A stretch of 64,000 bases of DNA from Nitrosopumilus sp. (GTDB lineage Archaea > Thermoproteota > Nitrososphaeria > Nitrososphaerales > Nitrosopumilaceae). The position numbers were made by a program, and so were the translations under genes. The stretch covers positions 1,184,001 to 1,248,000 of the forward strand of contig OZ241857.1 of the NCBI GenBank assembly GCA_965203315.1, read 5' to 3'. Below are positions 9,148 through 33,693 of this stretch, one piece after another. The notes under the pieces were generated by a model. That model was not told where the DNA came from. It saw only the letters and a list, made by a program, of their open reading frames with translations, and ran no database searches. The stretch's first letter is position 1. The number at the start of each line of letters is the position of its first letter.

Positions 9148-11504
9148 GGTGATTCCAATTCTTCGATCTTTTTCTTGGCTTCAGATAATTCTTGGGTAAG
9201 CTTGGTTATGGTGTGTTGTTGTTCAGTAGAGGTTGTTTCTAGAGTATTGTATCTAGATTGGAGATCGGCTAGTTCTTGTCTAAGTCTCTCTATGGTTGAT
9301 TCAAGCTCAATTATTCTAGTGTCGTCTTGAGTTGGTGGAGGTATCTCTAAATCAGTTGGTGGTTTTAGGTTGATAGATTCATCTAAATCATCGAGTGCTT
9401 TTTGAGATTCTAATTCCTCAATCTTTTTCTTGGCTTCATTCAGTTCAGTCTCTAAAGTGTTGTACCTGGATTGGAGATCGGCTAGTTCTTGTCTAAGTCT
9501 CTCTATGGTTGATTCATCTGAGTCTTTGAGTGCTTGTTGAGATTTTAATTCCTCAATCTTTTTCTTGGCTTCATTCAGTTGAGATTGAGTTTGTGTTGAG
9601 TTGGTTTCTAGTATATGATATTTAGACTGAAATTCATCTAGTTGAGTTTTTGTATCTATGCATGACTCTGCTAATTCAATCAAATGTTCCTTAGTCTTGG
9701 TATCTGTGTTAAAGGCGACTCTTAGATTTTCTTTGAAATCCTGCATTCTGTCTTTCCAGATATCTTTTCTTTCTTTCTGCTTGTCTTTTTTGGTTTCTAG
9801 TATTTCAACAGTGCCATTCATATTTTCAAGGATGTTAATCTTGGCGTTATGTTCAGATTCTAAAGTATTGTATCTGAATTGGAGATCGTGTAGAGAGGTT
9901 GTAGTAGTGTTGTGCTGATACCGTAGTGTGGTGTATTTAGATTCAAGATCAGCTAGTTTGGTTGTTTTGTTGTTATATTGAGTTTCTAGAGCATTATATC
10001 TAGACTGTAAATCATCTAGTTGAGTTGCGTTGTGTTCAGATTCTAGAGCATTATATCTAGACTGTAGTGTTTGATATCTAGATTGTAGTTCAGTTAGTTG
10101 AGTTGGATTTATTGGTCTGGTTGGTATGTGTGTTGTATCGGTTGTGAATGTAAAGTGTTCAGGTGGTTCGTAATAGTAATATCCATTGATAGAGTAGTAG
10201 GGTATCAGAGTAAATGTAAACTCGACAGGATTTTTATGAACATAATGATTTATGCGATATCGGTATTTACCGTCATTACAACCTAAATCACCGTATGTGT
10301 TAGAACCTGTATTTGATTCTAACATGTATTTAACATTAAAAGCACATGTATTGTTAGTGCCATATACTACTTGAACTTCACCAATGCTTTGATCATAGAG
10401 TAATTGTACATCTAGTTTGTAGTTGTCATAAAACACTACACTTGTTTTGTTGTTGAATAACGGTATTTTTGGTATTGTGGGCTCTGTTCCACTTACATTA
10501 ACAGTCATTGCACTCGAATAATAATATGATCTAATACTGTATTCGCCTGTTTTGCTAGGTGTGAATTCAGTGTCACCGTGATTACTCATCTGTATAGTTC
10601 GAGGATAGCTATCATGTGATACAACCACATCACCGTATATATCAAAAATCAGAGTATCGCCAAGTTGAATATTTAGTTCTCTTGGGATGGGCCTATTAAA
10701 ATCATCATCCCATGTAATTGTATGTGTGGTTTGATCTAGTGACTTGTATTTAGAGTAAAGTTCAGCTAGTTGTGCCGGAGTTAGTTGTGTGGGATGTATT
10801 GGTCTTGGCGTACTTGATGGTATGTGTGTTGTATCGGTTGTGAATGTAAAGTGTTCAGGTGGTTCGTAATAGTAATATCCATTGATAGAGTAGTAGGGTA
10901 TCAGAGTAAATGTAAACTCGACAGGATTTTTATGAACATAATGATTTATGCGATATCGGTATTTACCGTCATTACAACCTAAATCACCGTATGTGTTAGA
11001 ACCTGTATTTGATTCTAACATGTATTTAACATTAAAAGCACATGTATTGTTAGTGCCATATACTACTTGAACTTCACCAATGCTTTGATCATAGAGTAAT
11101 TGTACATCTAGTTTGTAGTTGTCATAAAACACTACACTTGTTTTGTTGTTGAATAACGGTATTTTTGGTATTGTGGGCTCTGTTCCACTTACATTAACAG
11201 TCATTGCACTCGAATAATAATATGATCTAATACTGTATTCGCCTGTTTTGCTAGGTGTGAATTCAGTGTCACCGTGATTACTCATCTGTATAGTTCGAGG
11301 ATAGCTATCATGTGATACAACCACATCACCGTATATATCAAAAATCAGAGTATCGCCAAGTTGAATATTTAGTTCTCTTGGGATGGGCCTATTAAAATCA
11401 TCATCCCATGTAATTGTATGTGTGGTTTGAGCATATACATTATCTACTAGACCTATAACGCCCATGATACTTACTGCAATAAGACTCCCAATTAGAATTT
11501 TCAC
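9144..11504 (-). CDS. Secreted protein with two identical ~204-aa head domains and a long coiled-coil stalk
   Basis: GTG start; signal peptide; duplicated QTTHTITWDD...TTHIP domain; heptad repeats ending KKIEELESP. Confidence 0.8.
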   Translation of the reverse strand: MKILIGSLIAVSIMGVIGLVDNVYAQTTHTITWDDDFNRPIPRELNIQLGDTLIFDIYGDVVVSHDSYPRTIQMSNHGDTEFTPSKTGEYSIRSYYYSSAMTVNVSGTEPTIPKIPLFNNKTSVVFYDNYKLDVQLLYDQSIGEVQVVYGTNNTCAFNVKYMLESNTGSNTYGDLGCNDGKYRYRINHYVHKNPVEFTFTLIPYYSINGYYYYEPPEHFTFTTDTTHIPSSTPRPIHPTQLTPAQLAELYSKYKSLDQTTHTITWDDDFNRPIPRELNIQLGDTLIFDIYGDVVVSHDSYPRTIQMSNHGDTEFTPSKTGEYSIRSYYYSSAMTVNVSGTEPTIPKIPLFNNKTSVVFYDNYKLDVQLLYDQSIGEVQVVYGTNNTCAFNVKYMLESNTGSNTYGDLGCNDGKYRYRINHYVHKNPVEFTFTLIPYYSINGYYYYEPPEHFTFTTDTTHIPTRPINPTQLTELQSRYQTLQSRYNALESEHNATQLDDLQSRYNALETQYNNKTTKLADLESKYTTLRYQHNTTTTSLHDLQFRYNTLESEHNAKINILENMNGTVEILETKKDKQKERKDIWKDRMQDFKENLRVAFNTDTKTKEHLIELAESCIDTKTQLDEFQSKYHILETNSTQTQSQLNEAKKKIEELKSQQALKDSDESTIERLRQELADLQSRYNTLETELNEAKKKIEELESQKALDDLDESINLKPPTDLEIPPPTQDDTRIIELESTIERLRQELADLQSRYNTLETTSTEQQHTITKLTQELSEAKKKIEELESP
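10122..11430. repeat. Apparently identical 613-bp direct repeats (10122-10734 and 10818-11430; period 696 bp)
   Basis: Identical translations; nucleotide identity wherever compared. Confidence 0.9.
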
Positions 11505-11513
11505 AAAAGAACT

Positions 11514-11531
11514 CCCCCCCCCCCCTTATAA
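11514..11531 (-). promoter_or_regulatory. TATA box followed by a G12 homopolymer upstream of the 11504 start
   Basis: Minus strand reads TTATAA-G12-AGTTCTTTT-GTG. Confidence 0.7.
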
Positions 11532-19825: not shown

Positions 19826-21925
19826 TTGGGACTAGCAGATCTAAAGCTTGGAAGCGTGATTTTACCAAGGAGTGAGTCTCCAAAAGCCATATCCAGACTG
19901 ACCGAGTTTGAATGGTTTCAAAAGATCGATACAGATAGTGATCTGGTTACTCCAGAGATCGATGACCTCTTACTCGAAGCTCAAAAGACATATCAGAGTA
20001 TAGACGAGGTGGTAAAGGGTTTGGGTGTACCACCCACTGTTGGAATATTAGAGATACTCTTCAAAGGGACTATTATCAAAAAGAAGGACTACGAGATAGA
20101 CGAGATCGAGGCGATGGTTCAAGATCTTGTAAAGCGCTCACCATCGATAATAGACGAGCCTGCCAACCTACTAGAAGAGAGGACAAGGATACAGAGCTCA
20201 CTTGATGAATATCGATCGATAAAAGAGACGATAGAGATTGCCAAAAAACTACAGATTGATCTAACTGGGTTGGGTTTGATGCGATACTTTTATTCAAATC
20301 TATTTATCATAAATACAGCAGACTATGACGAGATCGTTAGATCACTTGAAGGGATAGATATATCAAAGTACGAGTTAGACAGCAAGGTAAAGTCGGCAGT
20401 TCTAGTCTTTGGTTCTGTTGATGATACAGATAAGATTCTAAAAGTTTTACGTAGTTTTAACGCAAATCCATTTGTAATTCCACAAGGAATACCTCAGGTA
20501 CCTTCTGAGGCGTATGTGATGATCGAGTCCAAGATCAAAGAACTTGCTGAAGAGAAGAAGAGCAATGCGAAAAAGATTGCAAGTATGTCAAAGAAGATCA
20601 GACGTGACATACTAGTATTACATGAAGAGGCCCAAGTTGCAAAGGATGTTCTAGAGACGCTACGAAAGCCTGGTGGTACCAGAAACTTTGCAGTGATCCA
20701 AGGATTTATTCCAAGCAAGATGGAGAAGCAGTTCTCCCAAGCTACAAAACTGTGGATGTCCATCACAGAAGAGATTACTGATCCGAAACTAAAGGACCAA
20801 GTCCCGACTCTGTTTGATAACAAAAAGTTTGTACGAACCTTTGAAGTGATCACCCAGAGTCAAGGAATTCCAAAGCGTGGTGAACCAGATCCGACTCCGA
20901 TGATTGCGTTGATGTGGCCCATATTTTATGGATTAATGTTTGCAGATCTGGGTCACGGTCTCTTGTTGATGGGAATGGGGTTACTCTTCAAAGTAAAGGG
21001 ACAAGGAACACTTGCAAGATGGGGAATGTTGATAGCAATATCTGGTGCAGCGTCGGCTATAGCTGGTGTAGGTGCCGGCGAGGCGTTTGGGCATCATATT
21101 GATCATCTTGCGCCGTTTGAGGGTCTGTTTAAACAAGGTGGTGCACTCTATTCGTTGAGTTGGATTGTAGGAATCTTGAGTGTCGCCGAGCTCTCATTTG
21201 ATCAGGTCATCAACATACTCAAGGTCTCGTTGTTTCTAGGAATCATACACCTTGTGTGGGCTATGATACTACGAGTACGACGACTAGCAAAAGAGGGACA
21301 CAAGATTGTATTATACATGGAGGCGATTCCAAACATTACACTCTATGGTGGAATTGTTGTAATCATGATGTGCGCCATAGGCTCACAGTATGATGTGATG
21401 AACATGTACTCTAGAGAGCATACTGAAGCTGTTCCATGGGTTACGATATTTCTTGGTGAATGGGCCCAGGTCTGGATAGTTACGAGGATTGCAGTGGTGG
21501 TAGTTATCGCATCTATGGCCATGATGATGATAGGTGGCATAATGCATGCAAAGCGACATCCTGAGGAGGGTGGCTCTGCTGCAAATGTCGTAATGGAGGT
21601 ATTTTTGGGAAAGACGGTGGAGAGTCTTGCGCATACCATAAGCTATGCTCGTTTGGGGATCATGTTACTTGTGCATGCTGCGTTATTGTTGACCGTAAAC
21701 AATGCTTTCGAGTCGTTGGGCGGAATCGAGTCTGCTGGGGCGTGGGCAATGATAATTGGTGGCAATCTGGGAATAATGATAATAGAGGGATTAATAGTGT
21801 ACATTCAATCTCTCAGACTTCACCTATACGAGTTTTTTACAAAATGGTATAGTGGTGGCGCTAATCCGTTTAGACAGATCAAACCAGAGATGCTGTACAA
21901 CGAGCTGGTCTGGAAACGTTCATAA
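19826..21925 (+). CDS. atpI: A-type ATP synthase subunit I (a)
   Basis: DPTP...GLMFADLGHG, ISYARL and SLRLHLYEFF. Confidence 0.95.
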   Translation: MGLADLKLGSVILPRSESPKAISRLTEFEWFQKIDTDSDLVTPEIDDLLLEAQKTYQSIDEVVKGLGVPPTVGILEILFKGTIIKKKDYEIDEIEAMVQDLVKRSPSIIDEPANLLEERTRIQSSLDEYRSIKETIEIAKKLQIDLTGLGLMRYFYSNLFIINTADYDEIVRSLEGIDISKYELDSKVKSAVLVFGSVDDTDKILKVLRSFNANPFVIPQGIPQVPSEAYVMIESKIKELAEEKKSNAKKIASMSKKIRRDILVLHEEAQVAKDVLETLRKPGGTRNFAVIQGFIPSKMEKQFSQATKLWMSITEEITDPKLKDQVPTLFDNKKFVRTFEVITQSQGIPKRGEPDPTPMIALMWPIFYGLMFADLGHGLLLMGMGLLFKVKGQGTLARWGMLIAISGAASAIAGVGAGEAFGHHIDHLAPFEGLFKQGGALYSLSWIVGILSVAELSFDQVINILKVSLFLGIIHLVWAMILRVRRLAKEGHKIVLYMEAIPNITLYGGIVVIMMCAIGSQYDVMNMYSREHTEAVPWVTIFLGEWAQVWIVTRIAVVVVIASMAMMMIGGIMHAKRHPEEGGSAANVVMEVFLGKTVESLAHTISYARLGIMLLVHAALLLTVNNAFESLGGIESAGAWAMIIGGNLGIMIIEGLIVYIQSLRLHLYEFFTKWYSGGANPFRQIKPEMLYNELVWKRS

Positions 21926-21948
21926 CCAGATATAGATTTAATCTGCAT

Positions 21949-22095
21949 ATGATTGATCAGTCTGTCTTTGTAGTTCTGGAAGCTCTTGTGTATTGGAAAG
22001 CAGATTCAGTCTATGACTTGGTATGGACTTTGGAAGCCAAGATGAGTGTGAAAACAGTAAAGCAATATTGTCAAGATGAGGTGTTAGTGATATGA
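21949..22095 (+). CDS. 48-aa hypothetical micro-protein
   Basis: ATG start; stop overlaps the next start (ATGA). Confidence 0.35.
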   Translation: MIDQSVFVVLEALVYWKADSVYDLVWTLEAKMSVKTVKQYCQDEVLVI

Positions 22096-22268
22096 GTATG
22101 TTTGATGGTTTACTTGGAAATAAGGATAAGTGTGTATGTGGAAATGAGTATGATTATATTATAATTTCTAAAAATTTTGGAGTGCCTATTTGTATCTGTG
22201 ATGATTGTTTATTGGAACTTATTTCAGTTAGGCTTAAGAGTAGAGAGGATAAGGATCGATATGACTAG
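22092..22268 (+). CDS. 58-aa Zn-finger micro-protein
   Basis: MSMFDGLLGNKDKCVCGN...ICICDDCLLE; GAGGTG SD-like site upstream. Confidence 0.6.
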   Translation: MSMFDGLLGNKDKCVCGNEYDYIIISKNFGVPICICDDCLLELISVRLKSREDKDRYD

Positions 22269-22344
22269 AGATATGGGATATATGATTCTGCTATCTGCAT
22301 TTGTGTCTATTCTAGTCTATGAATTACTTTACAGAAAGAATTGA
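22261..22344 (+). CDS. 27-aa single-TM micro-protein
   Basis: MTRDMGYMILLSAFVSILVYELLYRKN; overlaps the previous stop. Confidence 0.4.
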   Translation: MTRDMGYMILLSAFVSILVYELLYRKN

Positions 22345-22381
22345 GATGATGAGGAGTGGGATTCTAGTTTAGGTGTTTAGT

Positions 22382-22639
22382 ATGGGTTTTGAAGAAGATG
22401 TTCTACGAGAGCTTAGTTCTATTCAAAAGCGTCTTAGTCGTATTGAAAGTGAAATTAACGAAAAACATTGTGAATTTGAAAAACATTGTGAATTTCAACC
22501 AATTTTGAACGATTGTAAATTTCATGAATGGGATAGTTGTAAATTTGAAAAACATTGTGATTTTGAACGACAGGATTGTAAATTTGAGAGACAGGATTGT
22601 AGATATGAAAGACCTGATGGTTGTAGGTATAATGGATAG
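22382..22639 (+). CDS. 85-aa protein with a helical N-terminus and eight Cys-x-(F/Y) repeats
   Basis: AGGTG upstream; EKHCEF / ERQDCKF / ERQDCRY repeats. Confidence 0.7.
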   Translation: MGFEEDVLRELSSIQKRLSRIESEINEKHCEFEKHCEFQPILNDCKFHEWDSCKFEKHCDFERQDCKFERQDCRYERPDGCRYNG

Positions 22640-22696
22640 TTGGTAAGATGGTATGCAGGTGTCATTTACTTAACAGATTATCAATGTTCTATTGAA

Positions 22697-22813
22697 TCAT
22701 ATCTTACCAAGTCTCTCTATCTTTCTACCAAAATACGCTATGGTTCTAATCATGCCAGATATGGTATCATCAAGTTCAGTCAAGGGATCTGGCTTGGCTT
22801 TACGTTTAGGCAT
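22697..22813 (-). CDS. 38-aa basic micro-protein
   Basis: MPKRKAKPDPLTELDDTISGMIRTIAYFGRKIERLGKI; TATATA at 22836-22841 could serve this ORF and the divergent 22868 ORF. Confidence 0.4.
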   Translation of the reverse strand: MPKRKAKPDPLTELDDTISGMIRTIAYFGRKIERLGKI

Positions 22814-22867
22814 GATGGTTATAGTATCAATCTAGTATATATGGTGTTTGAGTATGGGCTTGATTTA

Positions 22868-23068
22868 ATGAGTGTGAAAAGTAAGATAGTTAGTGGGTTC
22901 ATTATTACAAGTTTTGTATTTCTAATCATGTGGATATTTTGGATGATATATGCTTTGGAAAACTATGAAGCTGATATGGGTTTTACTGTTATGAGTTTGA
23001 TTATTCCTATTGGAATAATGTGTTTGATTAGTATTGGATTTGTGATTTATAGAGTTGTCAAAAGATGA
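22868..23068 (+). CDS. 66-aa two-TM protein
   Basis: Start at MSVKSKIVSG preferred over TTG 22640; two hydrophobic helices. Confidence 0.6.
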   Translation: MSVKSKIVSGFIITSFVFLIMWIFWMIYALENYEADMGFTVMSLIIPIGIMCLISIGFVIYRVVKR

Positions 23069-23259
23069 GTGCTATTGGTTGGGTTTTGTTGTTTGTTATA
23101 CCGTTTTTGTTTATTTATGTTTTGTATAATGCATTGGGTTCTGATAAGAAAGGTGGTTTCTACTGTTGGAATTGTGGTTTACAGTTTGATTGTATTGTAG
23201 ATGTTTGTTCTAGGTGTGGTTCTGTTAGAATAAAAAAGATAAAAAAGGGATTAAGGTGA
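23065..23259 (+). CDS. 64-aa TM + Zn-ribbon protein
   Basis: TM helix; CWNC..CSRC; basic tail; ATGA overlap. Confidence 0.65.
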   Translation: MSAIGWVLLFVIPFLFIYVLYNALGSDKKGGFYCWNCGLQFDCIVDVCSRCGSVRIKKIKKGLR

Positions 23260-24039
23260 TTCTAACTCCTCAATTTTCTTTGTTGCGTTGTTAAGTTCTT
23301 GAGTAAGTTTCTCTATGGTTTGTTCATGTTCAGATATGGTTTGTAGTTGTTGAATAGAAGTTGTGTTCATGATTTGATACAGTCTTTGCAGTTCAGATAG
23401 TTCAGTCTTGGTTTGATTTAGTTCATTCGTGGTCCTTTTCTTGTCATCATTACAAGCTCCGTGTTTGTTCTTTAGTTCCTTGTTCTTTTCTTTGAGTTTC
23501 TGTATCTGTTCATCATTGGATTCTGTTGTTCTATCTGGTTGATTAGATGGTGTCAAGTTGAATGTTCTTGCTATCAGGTTTATGATTCGTTCATCAGTAT
23601 TTTCATGATGGACTATGATTCTCTTGGTTATTGAACTCCATTCTCCATCAACAATACAGTTTTTAGGTAAAAATTTGAATTCATGACTTCCTATATCTTT
23701 TGCAATGAGTAGGATATATCCATCTGGTTCTAGATATTTTTTATTAGCATTATACTCATCGGCGGTTTTAGTTTTAATGTTATCTCTGTTTAAAACTCTA
23801 TAATCAGTTTGAATAATCTCACTAGTAGAGATAGTGTTGCCTTCTTGTATATACAATGGTTCATTACTAGTGTTGATGAGTTTTAGAGAGTCATGTAGAG
23901 CTATCTCTATATCACTATTATCACAATTCTCAAATATCTCATTTAAACTGTATTCGTGTATCATTGCTTCAACATCATCAACTAGACCTATAACTCCAAT
24001 AAGAGATACTGCAGTTAGGACTATTGGCACTATGTTCAT
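23251..24039 (-). CDS. Secreted head-plus-coiled-coil protein, paralogous at both termini to 9144-11504
   Basis: Signal AVSLIGVIGLVDDV vs AVSIMGVIGLVDNV; C-terminus KLTQELNNATKKIEELESP vs KLTQELSEAKKKIEELESP. Confidence 0.8.
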   Translation of the reverse strand: MNIVPIVLTAVSLIGVIGLVDDVEAMIHEYSLNEIFENCDNSDIEIALHDSLKLINTSNEPLYIQEGNTISTSEIIQTDYRVLNRDNIKTKTADEYNANKKYLEPDGYILLIAKDIGSHEFKFLPKNCIVDGEWSSITKRIIVHHENTDERIINLIARTFNLTPSNQPDRTTESNDEQIQKLKEKNKELKNKHGACNDDKKRTTNELNQTKTELSELQRLYQIMNTTSIQQLQTISEHEQTIEKLTQELNNATKKIEELESP

Positions 24040-24085
24040 TGATTATACCCAGATTGGATAGTAAATAAGCCTTGTTTTTTGGTAT

Positions 24086-24560
24086 TTGGTACCAAGTTGG
24101 TACTATAACTAGTACTAAACTGGTACCAAGATTCTAGGCATTGTAAAGCAGTTCTGGTACCAAGTTGGTACCATTGAGCTCATGTTTGTGAGCTCAATGT
24201 CTAAATCGTGCCTAAAAACATGAGCTCAAAGTTGAGCTCAATGTGAGCTCATAAACATGAGCTCAATGACTGTTGAGCTAAAATGTTGAGCTAAAAGCCT
24301 GGATTCGTGCCTAATCTGTTGAGCTAAGATTGAGCTAAATGTTGAGCTAACTGCAGATTATCGATATGGATATCATTATGGATATCTATATGGATATCAC
24401 AAAGTAGGCATGAAAAACCATGATATCCAAATATGGATATCAGTATGATATCCAAGTTTACCCATTGGGTATAATCTATACCCAAGATCTACCCAAATTA
24501 TACCCAAAAATCTAGGCATGGTTTACCCAAATTATACCCAAGTTTTACCCAATGGGTAAA
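24086..24560. repeat. Five-module array of phased short motifs, each module centred on TAGGCA/TGCCTA
   Basis: Module motifs: RGTACY, GAGCTC, GAGCTA, GATATC, TACCC; cores at 24135, 24209, 24308, 24405 and 24513. Confidence 0.9.
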
Positions 24561-24561
24561 T

Positions 24562-24710
24562 TAGATTATAGGAATACTCTAACCCAGTCCTTCTTGCCTT
24601 GCCTAAAGAGATATTAGATGAGATTTCCTATTAGGTATGGTTGATACCTTGTGTGGAAACTTGGTATTGACTGCAAGAAGGACTGGTTATGGGGGCAACC
24701 TCATAATCTA
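24562..24710 (+). ncRNA. Candidate ~150-nt hairpin RNA or ssDNA structure
   Basis: Perfect 14-bp IR (24584-24597 / 24673-24686); outer 8-bp IR (24562 / 24703); nested inner stems; strand inferred only from G-U pairs. Confidence 0.5.
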
Positions 24711-24875
24711 CTTGATTCTGGTGTTTTGTGTAAAAGATTGTGATATGGTAGATTCTAGGCACGAAATTGGTTGGAAAGGCTTGATTTGGTTTATATGTAG
24801 AAAGTTCCTAAATAGCCTTGTCTAATTTTCTAAAAAATTATGTTGCTATTGTATATCATAGTTTGAATTGGTACA

Positions 24876-25640
24876 TCATCTCTCTACAGGTAGCTCTAGT
24901 CTATTTCCCCACTCGCCCCAAGAACCGAGATATACTCGTACGTTCTCAAATCCAAGATACTTTAACGTAAGAAAAGAGTTTGCGGCACGATATGCTCCTT
25001 GGCAGTATGTTACAATATCTGCGTCCTGTGATATATTATACAGTTTAGACAAAGAACTTGTATCCAAGAGAGTTCCGTCTTGTGTAAGATTGAGATTCCA
25101 GTCTATGTTGATCGAGTTTGGTATATGACCTCCTCGAGCTGCGCGAATTATACTGCCTGTATATTCTGCGCGTGATCTCGCGTCGATTATAATCAGATTG
25201 GGATCGTCTCGGATCTCTTCAAAACCGATAATCAGTTTAGGGTTGGTCTGTCCTTCAAATTTGGATGGACGGTATGGGTTGCCGGTCTGTTCTATGGGCA
25301 GATGAGCCCTTTGCCATGCTTGGATTCCACCATTGAGCATTGCAGTATTTTCATTTGACATGTACATCGCCATCCAAACTCCACGAGCAGCAAGCATTCC
25401 AGATGTATTATCATAAAAGACGGTCTTCCTGTGATCAGCCATGCCAACAAAAGAGAAGAGAGTTCTTGTCTGCTGATCAAAGTTTGTAATTCCATTACTA
25501 GTTGTGTCAAACCAATGAAACGCAAATAGATCTAGATGTATTGCGCCAGGTATATGACCGCTAGCATACTCTTTAAACGATCTTGTATCGACTATTAGAG
25601 GATCGTCGAGTCTCTGAAGCTCATCTACAGATATTAGCAT
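24876..25640 (-). CDS. Two-domain rhodanese / thiosulfate sulfurtransferase
   Basis: YASGHIPGA, GHIPNS, active loop YCQGAYRA, VYLGSWGEW. Confidence 0.92.
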   Translation of the reverse strand: MLISVDELQRLDDPLIVDTRSFKEYASGHIPGAIHLDLFAFHWFDTTSNGITNFDQQTRTLFSFVGMADHRKTVFYDNTSGMLAARGVWMAMYMSNENTAMLNGGIQAWQRAHLPIEQTGNPYRPSKFEGQTNPKLIIGFEEIRDDPNLIIIDARSRAEYTGSIIRAARGGHIPNSINIDWNLNLTQDGTLLDTSSLSKLYNISQDADIVTYCQGAYRAANSFLTLKYLGFENVRVYLGSWGEWGNRLELPVER

Positions 25641-30462: not shown

Positions 30463-32043
30463 TTAGGTCTCACGCACAACTCTTAGCATTTCTTCGTATG
30501 GATTGAGTCCTTGTTGCTTCCATGTAGTTATACATGTAAAGATTGAACTCAATCGTTGTCTGCCTTTCTCAGATACGACATGTTGACACGTCTTGCGGAA
30601 TAGCACGAGTCTTCTCAGAGCACGTTCTGCCCGATTGTTTGTCGGCTCCATGCCCGGATGTGTCACGAATGTGTACAGTTCATGTGCAGCATTCTCTAGA
30701 TGAGTACCAAATTTGATATCCATCTTTTTGTATGCAGCTGCAAGCCGCAACGTCTCGCGTATGAGATCGTCTACAGCATATTTGAGATACAGGTCTACGC
30801 AATTGGGATCCTTTGCTTGTAGTCGAGTGGCAATCTCAAATAGTGCATGCAACCTCCGAAACATCATTAATGTACGTACATCACATACTGCACTTTCCGC
30901 GTGTCGCAATACGTGCGCCCAACACCGCTGCCGTATTTTAAACAAAAAATACACCGAATATCCATCACATACGAGTGGTATGTAGACAAATTTTCCAAAA
31001 TTCTCTTTTAGGAATTTCTTTCCACGTGATGGTCCTATCATAAATTGCGTACCATAATCGCCTACCAACACCCAAACCCATCCCAATGCTGCTAAAAGAG
31101 ATAGTGATGTCTCGTCCATGTGTGTATATCTTGACTTTTGGTTGCGTTCTGCAATCTTGTCCGCTTCTTTTTTGAGTCTGTCGCCAACCTCGTTTATTGC
31201 TCCAGTTACCATGTTATGAGAGATACGTGGATCCAAACACTGTAGCGATGTCGTTATTGACTTTATGCTGCTGCCACACTCTCTCATTATGGTCGCCATA
31301 CAGCCTAAATTCACGCCTAGCATTGTATTGTTTAATACATCTGGTATGTTATCTAGCGTGTTACCTGCACTGCCACAACAATTGCAGGCATATTTGTATC
31401 CGTTATGCATTATGACTTTGATATTGCACTCTAAATCCATAGATATTGTGTGTCCAGCGAACACGTTTGTCATATCTTGACTTCCACAATCATCACATTG
31501 TTCTTTTTTATGTGGTACGATCTCGTCTGCAGATATATCGTGTGTGATTCCATCATATCCCTTTGGTCGTCCTACCGGTTTTGGTACGGTTACTAGTTTT
31601 ACTTTTTTTGTACCTGATTTTGGTTTTCGTGATCGTGGAGTATTATGATTATTAGAAATCTCTCCTAGTTTCTCTTTCTCTTTGGCCTGTTCTGTTTGAG
31701 CTTTAATCTTTTCTTGTTTGTCATCTATCTTCTTTTTGGTGTTACGAATCTTGGTCTTGGATAAATTTTCTTCACGTTCAATAATGTTAATCACTTTCTT
31801 AAACGCAGTGATGCATGCAACTATTGCATTAGGTGATACTTGGAGTCCTAGCAGTGCAGTAATCAAAATCTTGTACACCTTTAGCATGTTCTTGCTCTTT
31901 TGTGCTAGTTGTGTTTGAAGAGATTCGACTGCTGCGTCACTCTCTTTCTTGGCATTCTTTAGCTGTGTCATCTCCTTAGCCATTGCTTGTTTCTCTGCCT
32001 TTAGAGTGGCTATCTGCTCTTGGTACGCAAGAATCGTAGACAT
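30463..32043 (-). CDS. IS66 transposase
   Basis: Coiled coil; CDDC..CNCC Zn finger; HMDET, VCDGY, QRCWAH and PTNNRAERALR. Confidence 0.92.
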   Translation of the reverse strand: MSTILAYQEQIATLKAEKQAMAKEMTQLKNAKKESDAAVESLQTQLAQKSKNMLKVYKILITALLGLQVSPNAIVACITAFKKVINIIEREENLSKTKIRNTKKKIDDKQEKIKAQTEQAKEKEKLGEISNNHNTPRSRKPKSGTKKVKLVTVPKPVGRPKGYDGITHDISADEIVPHKKEQCDDCGSQDMTNVFAGHTISMDLECNIKVIMHNGYKYACNCCGSAGNTLDNIPDVLNNTMLGVNLGCMATIMRECGSSIKSITTSLQCLDPRISHNMVTGAINEVGDRLKKEADKIAERNQKSRYTHMDETSLSLLAALGWVWVLVGDYGTQFMIGPSRGKKFLKENFGKFVYIPLVCDGYSVYFLFKIRQRCWAHVLRHAESAVCDVRTLMMFRRLHALFEIATRLQAKDPNCVDLYLKYAVDDLIRETLRLAAAYKKMDIKFGTHLENAAHELYTFVTHPGMEPTNNRAERALRRLVLFRKTCQHVVSEKGRQRLSSIFTCITTWKQQGLNPYEEMLRVVRET

Positions 32044-32228
32044 GACTCTAGTTGGTAAAGGCGGTGTTTAAGTTAGGATATCGCATAAAGTTGTCCTTTT
32101 AGTTTACATTTCTTGACCTACATTCAGATGATAGAAGGCATGTGAGTCGATCCAAGCGATCACCTGTAAATCGATCTAAAAGAGAAAATGCAAACGAACA
32201 GATTACCCATCTAAAAAAGAAAAACAAG

Positions 32229-33236
32229 ATGATCTATATCGGAATAGATGCACACAAGAGGTTTCTGCAAATTGCAGCAATGGATCAGGATGGCAAGCGT
32301 ATACTCAATGAGCGTGTTGCTACAGATCATGACAGTCTCAAAAAATTCTTTGCACAATTTACACCACTCAATACACGTTGTGTGATGGAGTCATCGTCAG
32401 TATGGTATTGGCTGTATAGATACTTGACAGATGAATTGGGATTTGATGTAGTACTATCGAATCCATATCAAACAAAGGCTATTGCCGAATCAAAGAAAAA
32501 GACAGACAAGGTGGATGCATGGACACTGGCAGATCTTTTAAGAGGAAATTATATCTCGCCTTGTTTTGTTCCTAGTGAATACACTGTTAAATTAAAACAG
32601 TTGGTTCGACATAGGGATGTAATTGTAAAGAGTAGAACAAAATACAAGAATCTCATACATGGGATATTACTGCAATATGGGATTAAAATACCTGGTTCAA
32701 GTTTTAGCAAGTCATTTAGAGAGGAATTGAAGAAACTTGAGGATTATAGAATAGACAACTATCTAGATATGATAACTTGCCATGAAGAAATGATTAGACA
32801 ATTGGATATTAAAATGCGTGAGGAGGTAAAGAGATCACAAGATGCACAGCTGTTAAAGACGATTCCCGGAGTTGGAAACTTTGTTGCACTTGTTGTAATA
32901 TCTAGTATTGGAGATGTCAAGAGATTCCCAACTGTTCGTAAGATATGTTCGTATGCAGGAATAGTACCATCTGTTCGTAATTCAGCTGGTAAACAAAATC
33001 ATGGACATATAACGAGGAAAGGTGATAAAATGCTTAGATGGGCATTGACCGAAGCAGTTCATGTACACATAAAATGTGAGCCCCATAGTTACATTACAAA
33101 ATTTCATAACAGAATTAAAAAGAGACGCGCGGTAAGCAAAGCAACTGTTGCAACTGCCTCCAAACTACTACGATTGATGTACCATATGCTTATAGATAGG
33201 GATGATTATGTCACACATTGTAGTCGAAATCATTAA
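32229..33236 (+). CDS. IS110 DEDD recombinase/transposase
   Basis: YIGIDAHK, VMESS, KTDKVDA, TIPGVG and GIVPSVRNSAG. Confidence 0.93.
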   Translation: MIYIGIDAHKRFLQIAAMDQDGKRILNERVATDHDSLKKFFAQFTPLNTRCVMESSSVWYWLYRYLTDELGFDVVLSNPYQTKAIAESKKKTDKVDAWTLADLLRGNYISPCFVPSEYTVKLKQLVRHRDVIVKSRTKYKNLIHGILLQYGIKIPGSSFSKSFREELKKLEDYRIDNYLDMITCHEEMIRQLDIKMREEVKRSQDAQLLKTIPGVGNFVALVVISSIGDVKRFPTVRKICSYAGIVPSVRNSAGKQNHGHITRKGDKMLRWALTEAVHVHIKCEPHSYITKFHNRIKKRRAVSKATVATASKLLRLMYHMLIDRDDYVTHCSRNH

Positions 33237-33416
33237 CGTACGGAAGATGTTTGAGATATCACTCGGCGACCTAAATGTACAGATTTTGACGAATGGACGA
33301 AGAATGATAGTGAGTTAACCACTCGAATGGATATATGTTCGCGGTCCTTTACATGGGAACACATCCCTAGCGTATGCTATGCACAATAGTCGTGAATCAG
33401 AGTAAATCTTTATAAG
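33237..33416 (+). ncRNA. Candidate bridge/seek RNA
   Basis: Non-coding end of the IS110 containing GACCTAA (target match) and ATGGATA (donor match); boundaries approximate. Confidence 0.55.
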
Positions 33417-33516
33417 CTATTCACATGGATAATATCTTACCAAAAAAGTGATTAGTAATGTGTGACTCAGAAACGACGACCCAATGAATTTACCTAGTCT
33501 AAATATCAAAAAGGTA

Positions 33517-33693
33517 GATTCTGTTAATTTGACGGGAGTTGGCATTTTCTGCACAAAATTTTCGAAAAATTTTGCAAAATATGGAAACGGTCTCATATCG
33601 GCGATCGTAAATTGCTGCTGTTTTGAGTCTCATATTGTGCGTTCTTTGATATAACATCATCACGATCTCAACCCTCGCCAATTGAACAGAACC
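33517..33693. mobile_element. 177-bp MITE with GGTTCTGTT-type (IS6-like) TIRs
   Basis: G(A)TTCTGTT...AACAGAACC; inverted homolog at 53666-53840. Confidence 0.85.

Follow-up and report, generated by a model that had tools for sequence, protein, structure and literature searches.

A foldback unit beside a core-bearing repeat array in a Nitrosopumilus island, tentatively read as a sixth DNA module

The non-coding block at the right end of a small accessory island in Nitrosopumilus sp. consists of five tandem repeat modules, each built around a TAGGCA core, followed by a 103-bp foldback unit, H. Judging from the sequence, we tentatively regard H as a sixth module of this array, one that would act as DNA and serve as a docking site for a putative host protein binding the TAGGCA core. 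A preliminary description of this DNA had proposed that hairpin and array belong to one system, which agrees with the two cores carried by H, with its size of about 100 bp and with its perfect terminal inverted repeat; since the latter two are like those of modules 2 and 5, H is best read as a sixth DNA module. The core also recurs in a conserved chromosomal element of about 190 bp, and the flanks common to array and element point to a host DNA-binding protein. The array together with H is without a second example in any collection searched, and selection on the array is unproven.

The island and its repeat array

The window, that is, the whole stretch of 64,000 nucleotides analyzed, corresponds to C1:1184001-1248000 of a 2.47-Mb genome in 7 contigs, whose gene content, with an A/V-type ATP synthase, an ammonium transporter and a single cdc6, suggests an ammonia-oxidising archaeon. 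Coordinates without a contig name are those of the window. The island (~2.9 kb) lies between a gene that, from its translation, we take to code for ATP synthase subunit I (ending at 21925) and a rhodanese gene (ending at 24876). Among the corresponding loci of 29 relatives, the gap between these two genes measures 17-1255 bp in 20, compared with 2950 bp here; eight others lack the subunit I gene inside the locus and one is uninterpretable. Such a variable gap marks an insertion hot spot. The nearest rhodanese found among 150 genus genomes is 67% identical, indicating a lineage without close relative in the collection. The island ORFs gave no Pfam or PHROG family above cut-off, and relatives of island proteins (P0010, P0013-P0015) were found in ENA assemblies. 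Contigs of runs X1, X2, X4 and X5, which come from three studies, one of them possibly the source, span the block with 0 differences, which argues against an assembly artefact. The features of the island outside H are as follows.

21930..24860, no strand: accessory island with small orphan ORFs, the 262-aa gene and the non-coding block (edges approximate)
23251..24039, minus: 262-aa gene with hydrophobic N-terminus and coiled-coil C-terminus, member of a lineage-specific paralogous family
24062..24077, minus: BRE/TATA promoter of the 262-aa gene (left TAAATAAGCCTTGT, minus-strand reading; score 7.3 at the modal -38)
24087..24173, plus: module 1, GGTACC repeats, core at 24135, 87 bp, 9-bp terminal inverted repeat
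24172..24268, minus: module 2, GAGCTC repeats, core at 24209-24214, 97 bp, 16-bp perfect terminal inverted repeat
24270..24352, minus: module 3, TTAGCTCA repeats, core at 24308-24313, no fold (z about -0.3)
24364..24453, plus: module 4, GATATC repeats, core at 24405
24457..24560, plus: module 5, TACCCA repeats, core at 24513, 104 bp, 15-bp perfect terminal inverted repeat
24750..24763, plus: seventh core, AGATTC-TAGGCACG, 12 bases identical to module 1, without surrounding repeat lattice
24809..24824, minus: right TAAATAGCCTTGT copy, promoter-like, not above background (score 3.8; scores of at least 4 occur at about 1.1% of background positions)

Seven exact cores are found in 630 bp, where 0.2 would be expected. 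The seventh, AGATTCTAGGCA, is present at 24750 and, as previously described, in identical form in module 1 at 24129. In modules 1-5, the repeats are centred at -35, -23/-24, -11/-12, +20-22 and +33/34 from the core. H (103 bp, 14-bp repeat) is comparable in size and terminal repeat with modules 2 (97 bp, 16 bp), 5 (104 bp, 15 bp) and 1 (87 bp, 9 bp). Of the 56 perfect terminal repeats counted outside contig C3, three lie in this 520-bp stretch; the remainder are for the most part members of two dispersed repeat families. The z values of modules 1, 2, 4 and 5 range from -2.9 to -10.6, and module 3 does not fold. It follows that the modules conserve spacing, not fold, and, because the neighbours of H fold strongly too, that strong folding in this block does not by itself denote an RNA.

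The words TAAATA(A)GCCTTGT, noted in the preliminary description at both ends of the block, do lie at 24062 and 24809. A promoter matrix was built from 1011 upstream regions of this genome and has its maximum 38 bases before the start codon (-38). The left copy, in minus-strand reading, stands at just this distance from the ATG of the 262-aa gene, with a score of 7.3, and is thus its BRE/TATA promoter; the right copy has a background score, and the pair is not shown as element ends. In paralogs belonging to the 262-aa family, poly-G tracts stand between TATA and start (C1:1195480 region, window about 11490-11530; C5:122900; C1:644370). Beside another paralog of this secreted family, C1:645000-655000 is a decayed provirus- or plasmid-like island with small zinc-finger ORFs and ORFs presumably MCM-like and GINS-like, in which no modules were seen.

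Searches for relatives of the block were negative in every collection. By blastn against 60 relatives, the best outside match of the block spans 40 bp (E 3.8e-4), and a single-sequence covariance model of H gave 0 matches in 149 genus genomes. The lattice pattern matched nine times in 400 family genomes: the five loci examined are a ribosomal-protein gene leader and low-complexity stretches, and the other four share near-identical matched text. Successive searches of viral contigs returned 7 tandem or coding matches, then 0, then 2 coding matches, with no relative of H or the array, and none was found among plasmids and phages. The 40 matches in GTDB contigs are bacterial by title and none has a module; the four in metagenomes all lie in one bacterial permease gene. 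Used as handles, the island proteins revealed no loci in viral contigs, metagenomes, 300 family genomes or 150 genus genomes.

Other repeats and small ORFs were recorded. A copy of a very abundant inverted-repeat element of ~175 bp, present in dozens of copies, occupies window positions 33519-33693, and two more dispersed inverted-repeat families measure about 140 and 115 bp. IS66 (window 30463-32043) and IS110-family (32119-33432) transposases lie side by side, a pair that recurs at C1:231859-233843. A long, near-perfect intergenic hairpin (z about -7) at C1:583703-583813 is unrelated in sequence to H. Within the island, an 88-aa ORF (window 22373-22639) has Cys-rich heptad-like repeats and overlaps an Rfam match to an HDV-like ribozyme that is probably spurious (25.8 bits against a cut-off of 38). 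The 62-aa ORF at 24637-24825 was considered as a small toxin and rejected: it is not a called protein, has neither PHROG family nor paralog, and is probably a chance ORF. A 17.8-kb segment is duplicated at 99.98% identity (C5:1-17756 and C1:1-17756), so that assembly layout and distances need care.

Fold and cores of unit H

24562..24710, no strand: weaker outer stem TAGATTATAGG / CCTCATAATCTA, lost to local helices once the fold is extended to 24790
24584..24686, no strand: foldback unit H, 103 bp, proposed sixth module, with a perfect 14-bp inverted repeat (helix P1, 24584-24597 / 24673-24686)
24600..24637, plus: arm P2, in which the reverse core TGCCTA(A) at 24600-24606 pairs with TTAGGTA at 24631-24637; 6-nt loop at 24616-24621
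24608..24624, plus: GAGAT pair, its words placed -24 and -12 relative to the degenerate core, which are module lattice positions (noted post hoc)
24632..24639, plus: second forward core, degenerate (TAGGTATG, differing from TAGGCATG by one base) and overlooked in the preliminary description
24639..24672, plus: arm P3, 10-bp helix with G-U pairs, U-U internal loop and 6-nt loop at 24653-24658

The words on which the preliminary description built its hairpin are all in place: TAGATTAT at 24562 and ATAATCTA at 24703, the exact 14-bp pair CCAGTCCTTCTTGC (24584) and GCAAGAAGGACTGG (24673), and further inside TTTCC (24624) and GGAAA (24655), AGGTAT (24633) and ATACCT (24644), and TGCCTA (24600). The fold is strong but not simply nested, the plus-strand optimum being a three-way junction of P1, P2 and P3; the two inner helices TTTCC/GGAAA and AGGTAT/ATACCT belong to the minus-strand optimum and not to that of the plus strand. 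TGCCTA, which had been placed unpaired in a bulge, is paired within P2: in the RNA ensemble of 24562-24710, all six core bases are unpaired with a probability of 9e-5 on the plus strand and 3e-3 on the minus strand. The mean unpaired probability of the core is 0.03 (plus) and 0.36 (minus) with RNA parameters and 0.33 and 0.58 with DNA parameters, so the core is predicted to open just partially as single-stranded DNA. In the folds of the modules, the cores are mostly open (mean 0.41-0.87 in nine of ten RNA folds; 0.02 for the minus strand of module 5).

Measured against shuffled controls, both strands fold beyond chance. The segment 24580-24690 reaches z -8.5 (plus) and -6.0 (minus) as RNA and -6.0 and -5.5 as DNA, and the inner 75 nt by themselves -3.85 (plus) and -2.55 (minus). 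For background windows, taken from the plus strand of contig C1 and scored with 25 shuffles each, a z of -8.5 was attained by none of 260 random non-coding 111-nt windows, and a z of -3.85 by 3 of 449 windows of 75 nt. Five G-U pairs add 10 kcal/mol on the plus strand, versus 2 kcal/mol on the minus strand; when G-U pairs are disallowed, the strands fold equally (-36.5 and -35.6 kcal/mol). With 26 G to 18 C, the plus strand is G-rich, a composition conducive to G-U folding.

H carries two cores, TAGGCAAG and TAGGTATG, each one change from the consensus, arranged head-to-head 26 bp apart. Its inner 75 nt hold five near-copies of the hexamer of modules 1 and 4, where 0.95 are expected (p 0.0008, for a pattern picked post hoc), and a GAGAT pair at -24/-12 occurs at 17 of the 1829 TAGG[C/T]A sites genome-wide. 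Several features speak against H as a module: both its cores deviate from the consensus, its lattice amounts to a single GAGAT pair, its 14-bp arms are unique sequence whereas those of modules 2 and 5 consist of repeats, and its inner arms have RNA-like features (G-U pairs). H is single copy in the genome, neither blastn nor the covariance model having found a second one, and hence it is not the dispersed MITE that the preliminary description had named as the outcome that would undo its proposal.

A conserved chromosomal element with the same core

The conserved element is about 190 bp long, with four cores and three G-string boxes; the copy of this genome is intergenic at C1:324010-324200 (L178), and other copies are among L160-L185. 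The whole element is present in 141 of 200 family genomes, including 36 of 37 in the genus, with one match in all but three. The shorter pattern RTGCCTA-N4-6-TAAACCCC was found in 21/31 genus genomes and 25/74 family genomes, against 3/251 for the reversed control, and outside the family in 3/176, where the two examined are inside ORFs or unrelated. In 22 aligned copies, the cores occupy four fixed columns, a 1-nt indel occurring in four sequences only, and compensatory changes affect 1 of 22 and 1 of 16 predicted pairs on the two strands. A nearly gap-free alignment with almost no compensatory change fits a DNA lattice, and the element has no Rfam family.

The link between array and element was found through a search for the core; the search for paired cores itself showed no real excess, with matches in 11 of 150 genus genomes and in 8 for the reversed control. 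Three of its matches are one intergenic locus that is present in this genome too, at C1:324010-324200. TAGGCAC ranks 826 among the intergenic words of the genome and is thus not a top word. When this genome was omitted from training, the seven array cores agreed with the flank consensus of the element (Y-Y-TAGGCA-Y-R-A) at 27 of 35 positions, where 17-18 are expected (p 0.0009; 0.005 when GC-matched; 0.02-0.04 with wider flanks).

In 11 single-contig genomes, the element lies at 0.40-0.48 of the chromosome from cdc6 (0.47 in G153). It usually adjoins a ribosomal-protein cluster, and synteny alone could therefore explain its position opposite cdc6. We consider it a candidate terminus or segregation platform. 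Three other assignments were ruled out. The core is not a promoter element, as it is not enriched before start codons in this genome. It is not an ORB, because the ORB-like boxes upstream of cdc6 (C1:1283000), labelled by what we take to be the ORB consensus, differ in sequence and are without core. Nor is the element a dif site, since the 11-6-11 arrangement is missing and no Xer-type recombinase was found in the closed genomes G010 and G206, which carry the element and returned no match to a tyrosine recombinase, resolvase or serine recombinase. No paper on the element was found in open-licence full text, and a prior description is possible.

Units made of a solo core plus a G-string occur in variable regions of other genomes (L163, L179, L180), and a core cluster in the variable region of another genome (L152) adjoins an ORF that we assume to be primase-helicase-like; these solo units and clusters look as if mobile DNA had borrowed the core site. 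A seven-copy insertion sequence with a 295-aa ORF (C1:446121, 510204, 597418, 661138, 1484403, 1503780 and 1926717) has TAGGCAC 16 bp inside one end, and two further small repeat families are also centred on TAGGCAC. In one other genus (L248-L253), GATTCTAGGCAC lies between TATA and start of a gene presumably coding for ribosomal protein L2, an arrangement that is not general in this genome.

Known systems, rival readings and a possible role

Plasmid iteron platforms with an embedded host-factor site, such as P1 parS with IHF, R1 parC and tubC, resemble the block in their short repeats, 11-12-bp lattice, two arms around a constant central word and about 100 bp per unit. Modules 1-5 have the phased 11-12-bp repeats in two arms of plasmid centromeres and iterons, and H has one repeat pair. 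Unlike these platforms, the block combines five repeat types in tandem with a foldback unit, and is chromosomal and not shown on a plasmid; the island is without partition or Rep gene, no family of an adjacent binding protein with motor or Rep having been found among its ORFs. Integron attC and CTX-phage attP are folded single-strand recombination sites that rebuild a double-stranded protein site, and H is alike in that its single strand is predicted to refold so that P2 rebuilds the core. No RYYYAAC/GTTRRRY ends were seen by eye in the block, and there is no ORF of at least 70 aa between units. The island has no integrase, and the two tyrosine recombinases of the genome are 260 and 795 kb away.

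Among archaeal systems, the centromere-like SegB and pNOB8 AspA sites each consist of one palindrome immediately upstream of the respective gene; like the block, they are short site-specific words in archaeal non-coding DNA with a proposed role in nucleoprotein nucleation (PMC5120986), whereas the core of the block is asymmetric and has no gene of this kind next to it. The bridge RNA of IS110 elements is located in the IS110 ends and pairs target and donor DNA through internal loops; it shares with H a multi-stem structure of about 150 nt and a 'core' word (PMC11208160), but H has no large internal guide loops, lies outside an IS110 end and has no flank complementarity. The nearest IS110 element (about 32119-33432) has its own ends, and the inspected ends and flanks are without core. 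The conserved element is like an archaeal Xer/dif site in being single copy and on the chromosome side opposite cdc6, and differs from the 11-6-11 bp rule quoted for that site (PMC8371274) in its length of about 190 bp, four cores and G-strings. With archaeal origin recognition boxes it shares repeated boxes with G-strings (PMC4010727), although the core is not part of the ORB-like boxes upstream of cdc6 (C1:1283000). The passages on repeats, origins and relaxases in a survey of thaumarchaeal mobile elements report no relaxase candidates and nothing like the block (PMC6563490).

Of the properties of a MITE, H has terminal inverted repeats (14 bp, perfect); multiple copies or cognate transposon ends were not found in the genome by blastn or the covariance model, and reading of the flanks of H disclosed no target-site duplication. 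The Y1 transposase of REP/REPIN or IS200/605 (HUH) systems (PF01797) is absent from five genomes including this one (0/5; control 6/14). A single-strand origin or recombination hairpin, also considered in the preliminary description, is conceivable: the single-stranded DNA fold is strong; nothing Rep-like was recognized among the island ORFs, and neither an HUH protein nor a serine recombinase nor a linked integrase was found. A search of 21500-25200 against Rfam for a structured RNA produced 12 matches at E up to 5, all far below cut-off, of which H meets a single one (0.8) by an 11-base overlap. Hammerhead, C/D and H/ACA readings of H were rejected, as no boxes were seen by eye and no Rfam match was obtained. 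On the whole, the block resembles a composite iteron-plus-host-factor site with a folded form of the attC type, and fully fits none of the families tried.

That H is instead a small RNA gene on the plus strand, from about 24584 to 24690 or possibly to a U-rich tract near 24727, and folded as the three-way junction, is the main alternative, though less probable. P2 would then reproduce the core as double-stranded RNA and might capture the core-binding protein as a decoy or sense it, just as 6S RNA mimics a promoter. The plus strand does fold more strongly than the minus strand (z -8.5), its inner arms are significant alone (3/449 windows), it has the five G-U pairs and the U-U internal loop, and a promoter-like word at 24548 would, with the -38 offset, lead to 24586 at the start of P1. 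However, this word scores 3.8, a value seen at more than 1% of background positions, the G-rich composition of the strand favours G-U folding, neither an Rfam family near cut-off nor a structural homologue in the 149 genus genomes was found, and the adjoining DNA modules fold equally strongly. A guide or bridge RNA pairing with the module cores to direct a recombinase or nuclease, as envisaged in the preliminary description, is largely refuted and now very improbable. In its favour are the core within H, the position of H next to the array, an IS110-family transposase at a distance of 7.4 kb and the tendency of the module cores to be unpaired when the modules fold. Against it, the core within H is itself paired, and the longest accessible run of H is 6 nt on the plus strand, which has no larger loop, and 12 nt on the minus strand. 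The longest match of hairpin to array, 9 nt compared with 8.3 in shuffles (P 0.36), shows that matches to module flanks are not beyond chance; moreover, the ends and flanks of the IS110 copies, as inspected, have no core, and no rearranged modules appear in the contigs of the four runs, which drop rare variants.

It is unlikely that H is an unrelated or decayed foldback insertion, be it a MITE-like relic or the product of an inverted duplication, with no current role. The genome is rich in small inverted-repeat elements, the island is itself a relic in an insertion hot spot, and by an estimate from base composition about two 14-bp repeats of such spacing are expected per genome by chance; set against this are the single copy of H and the failure to find cognate element ends in the genome, the lack of a visible target-site duplication on either side, the two cores, the module size, and inner arms that fold beyond the terminal repeat. 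Less probable still, the whole block would be an unusually long control region of the 262-aa secreted-type gene, in which each module, H included, binds a different regulator. Module 1 begins 10 bp upstream of the BRE/TATA of this gene, and a paralog on contig C5 (C5:306850-306946) still has the promoter and, in decayed form, the left arm of module 1 (p 0.003 by local alignment), but three other paralogs show no such repeats in their upstream 300 bp, H is 500 bp from the promoter, and the core is not enriched near promoters.

If H is a sixth module, as we prefer, one host protein would bind the core in both the array and the conserved element, and in modules 1-5 this core would be set inside an 11-12-bp lattice whose repeats differ between modules and would be the sites of partner proteins; a host factor among plasmid iterons may serve as a model for this arrangement. 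Duplex H would offer two inverted cores; in single-stranded form, as in a cruciform or an intermediate of replication or transfer, it would refold, and the two cores would become one double-stranded site. Most likely, the block would be the cis-acting maintenance region of a relic mobile element, forming a nucleoprotein platform of the partition or origin type whose protein partners have been lost from the island; alternatively, it could be a bank of decoys for such proteins. A bolder proposition, which we hold to be improbable as it stands, is that the ammonia-oxidising archaea of this family organise their chromosomes with a sequence-specific protein not yet described, which has its home site in the rigid lattice of ~190 bp opposite the origin. 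The island would then be a bank of six captured modules coupling this site to different repeat codes, and H a strand-state switch with two inverted sites as duplex and one rebuilt site as single-stranded DNA or RNA.

Should this be true, such a module bank would let a mobile element hitch onto several element-maintenance systems at once, or let the host jam them. An archaeal example of docking that depends on strand state would be at hand if the single strand of H rebuilds the core site; if the unit is just a relic foldback, the hairpin would be minor and the conserved element still of interest. The segregation and completion of chromosomes in these abundant archaea is still an open question, and archaeal centromeres have been named as one such question (PMC5120986). 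The core word, common to the island block and to an element widespread in the family, would be a concrete bait to identify the protein.
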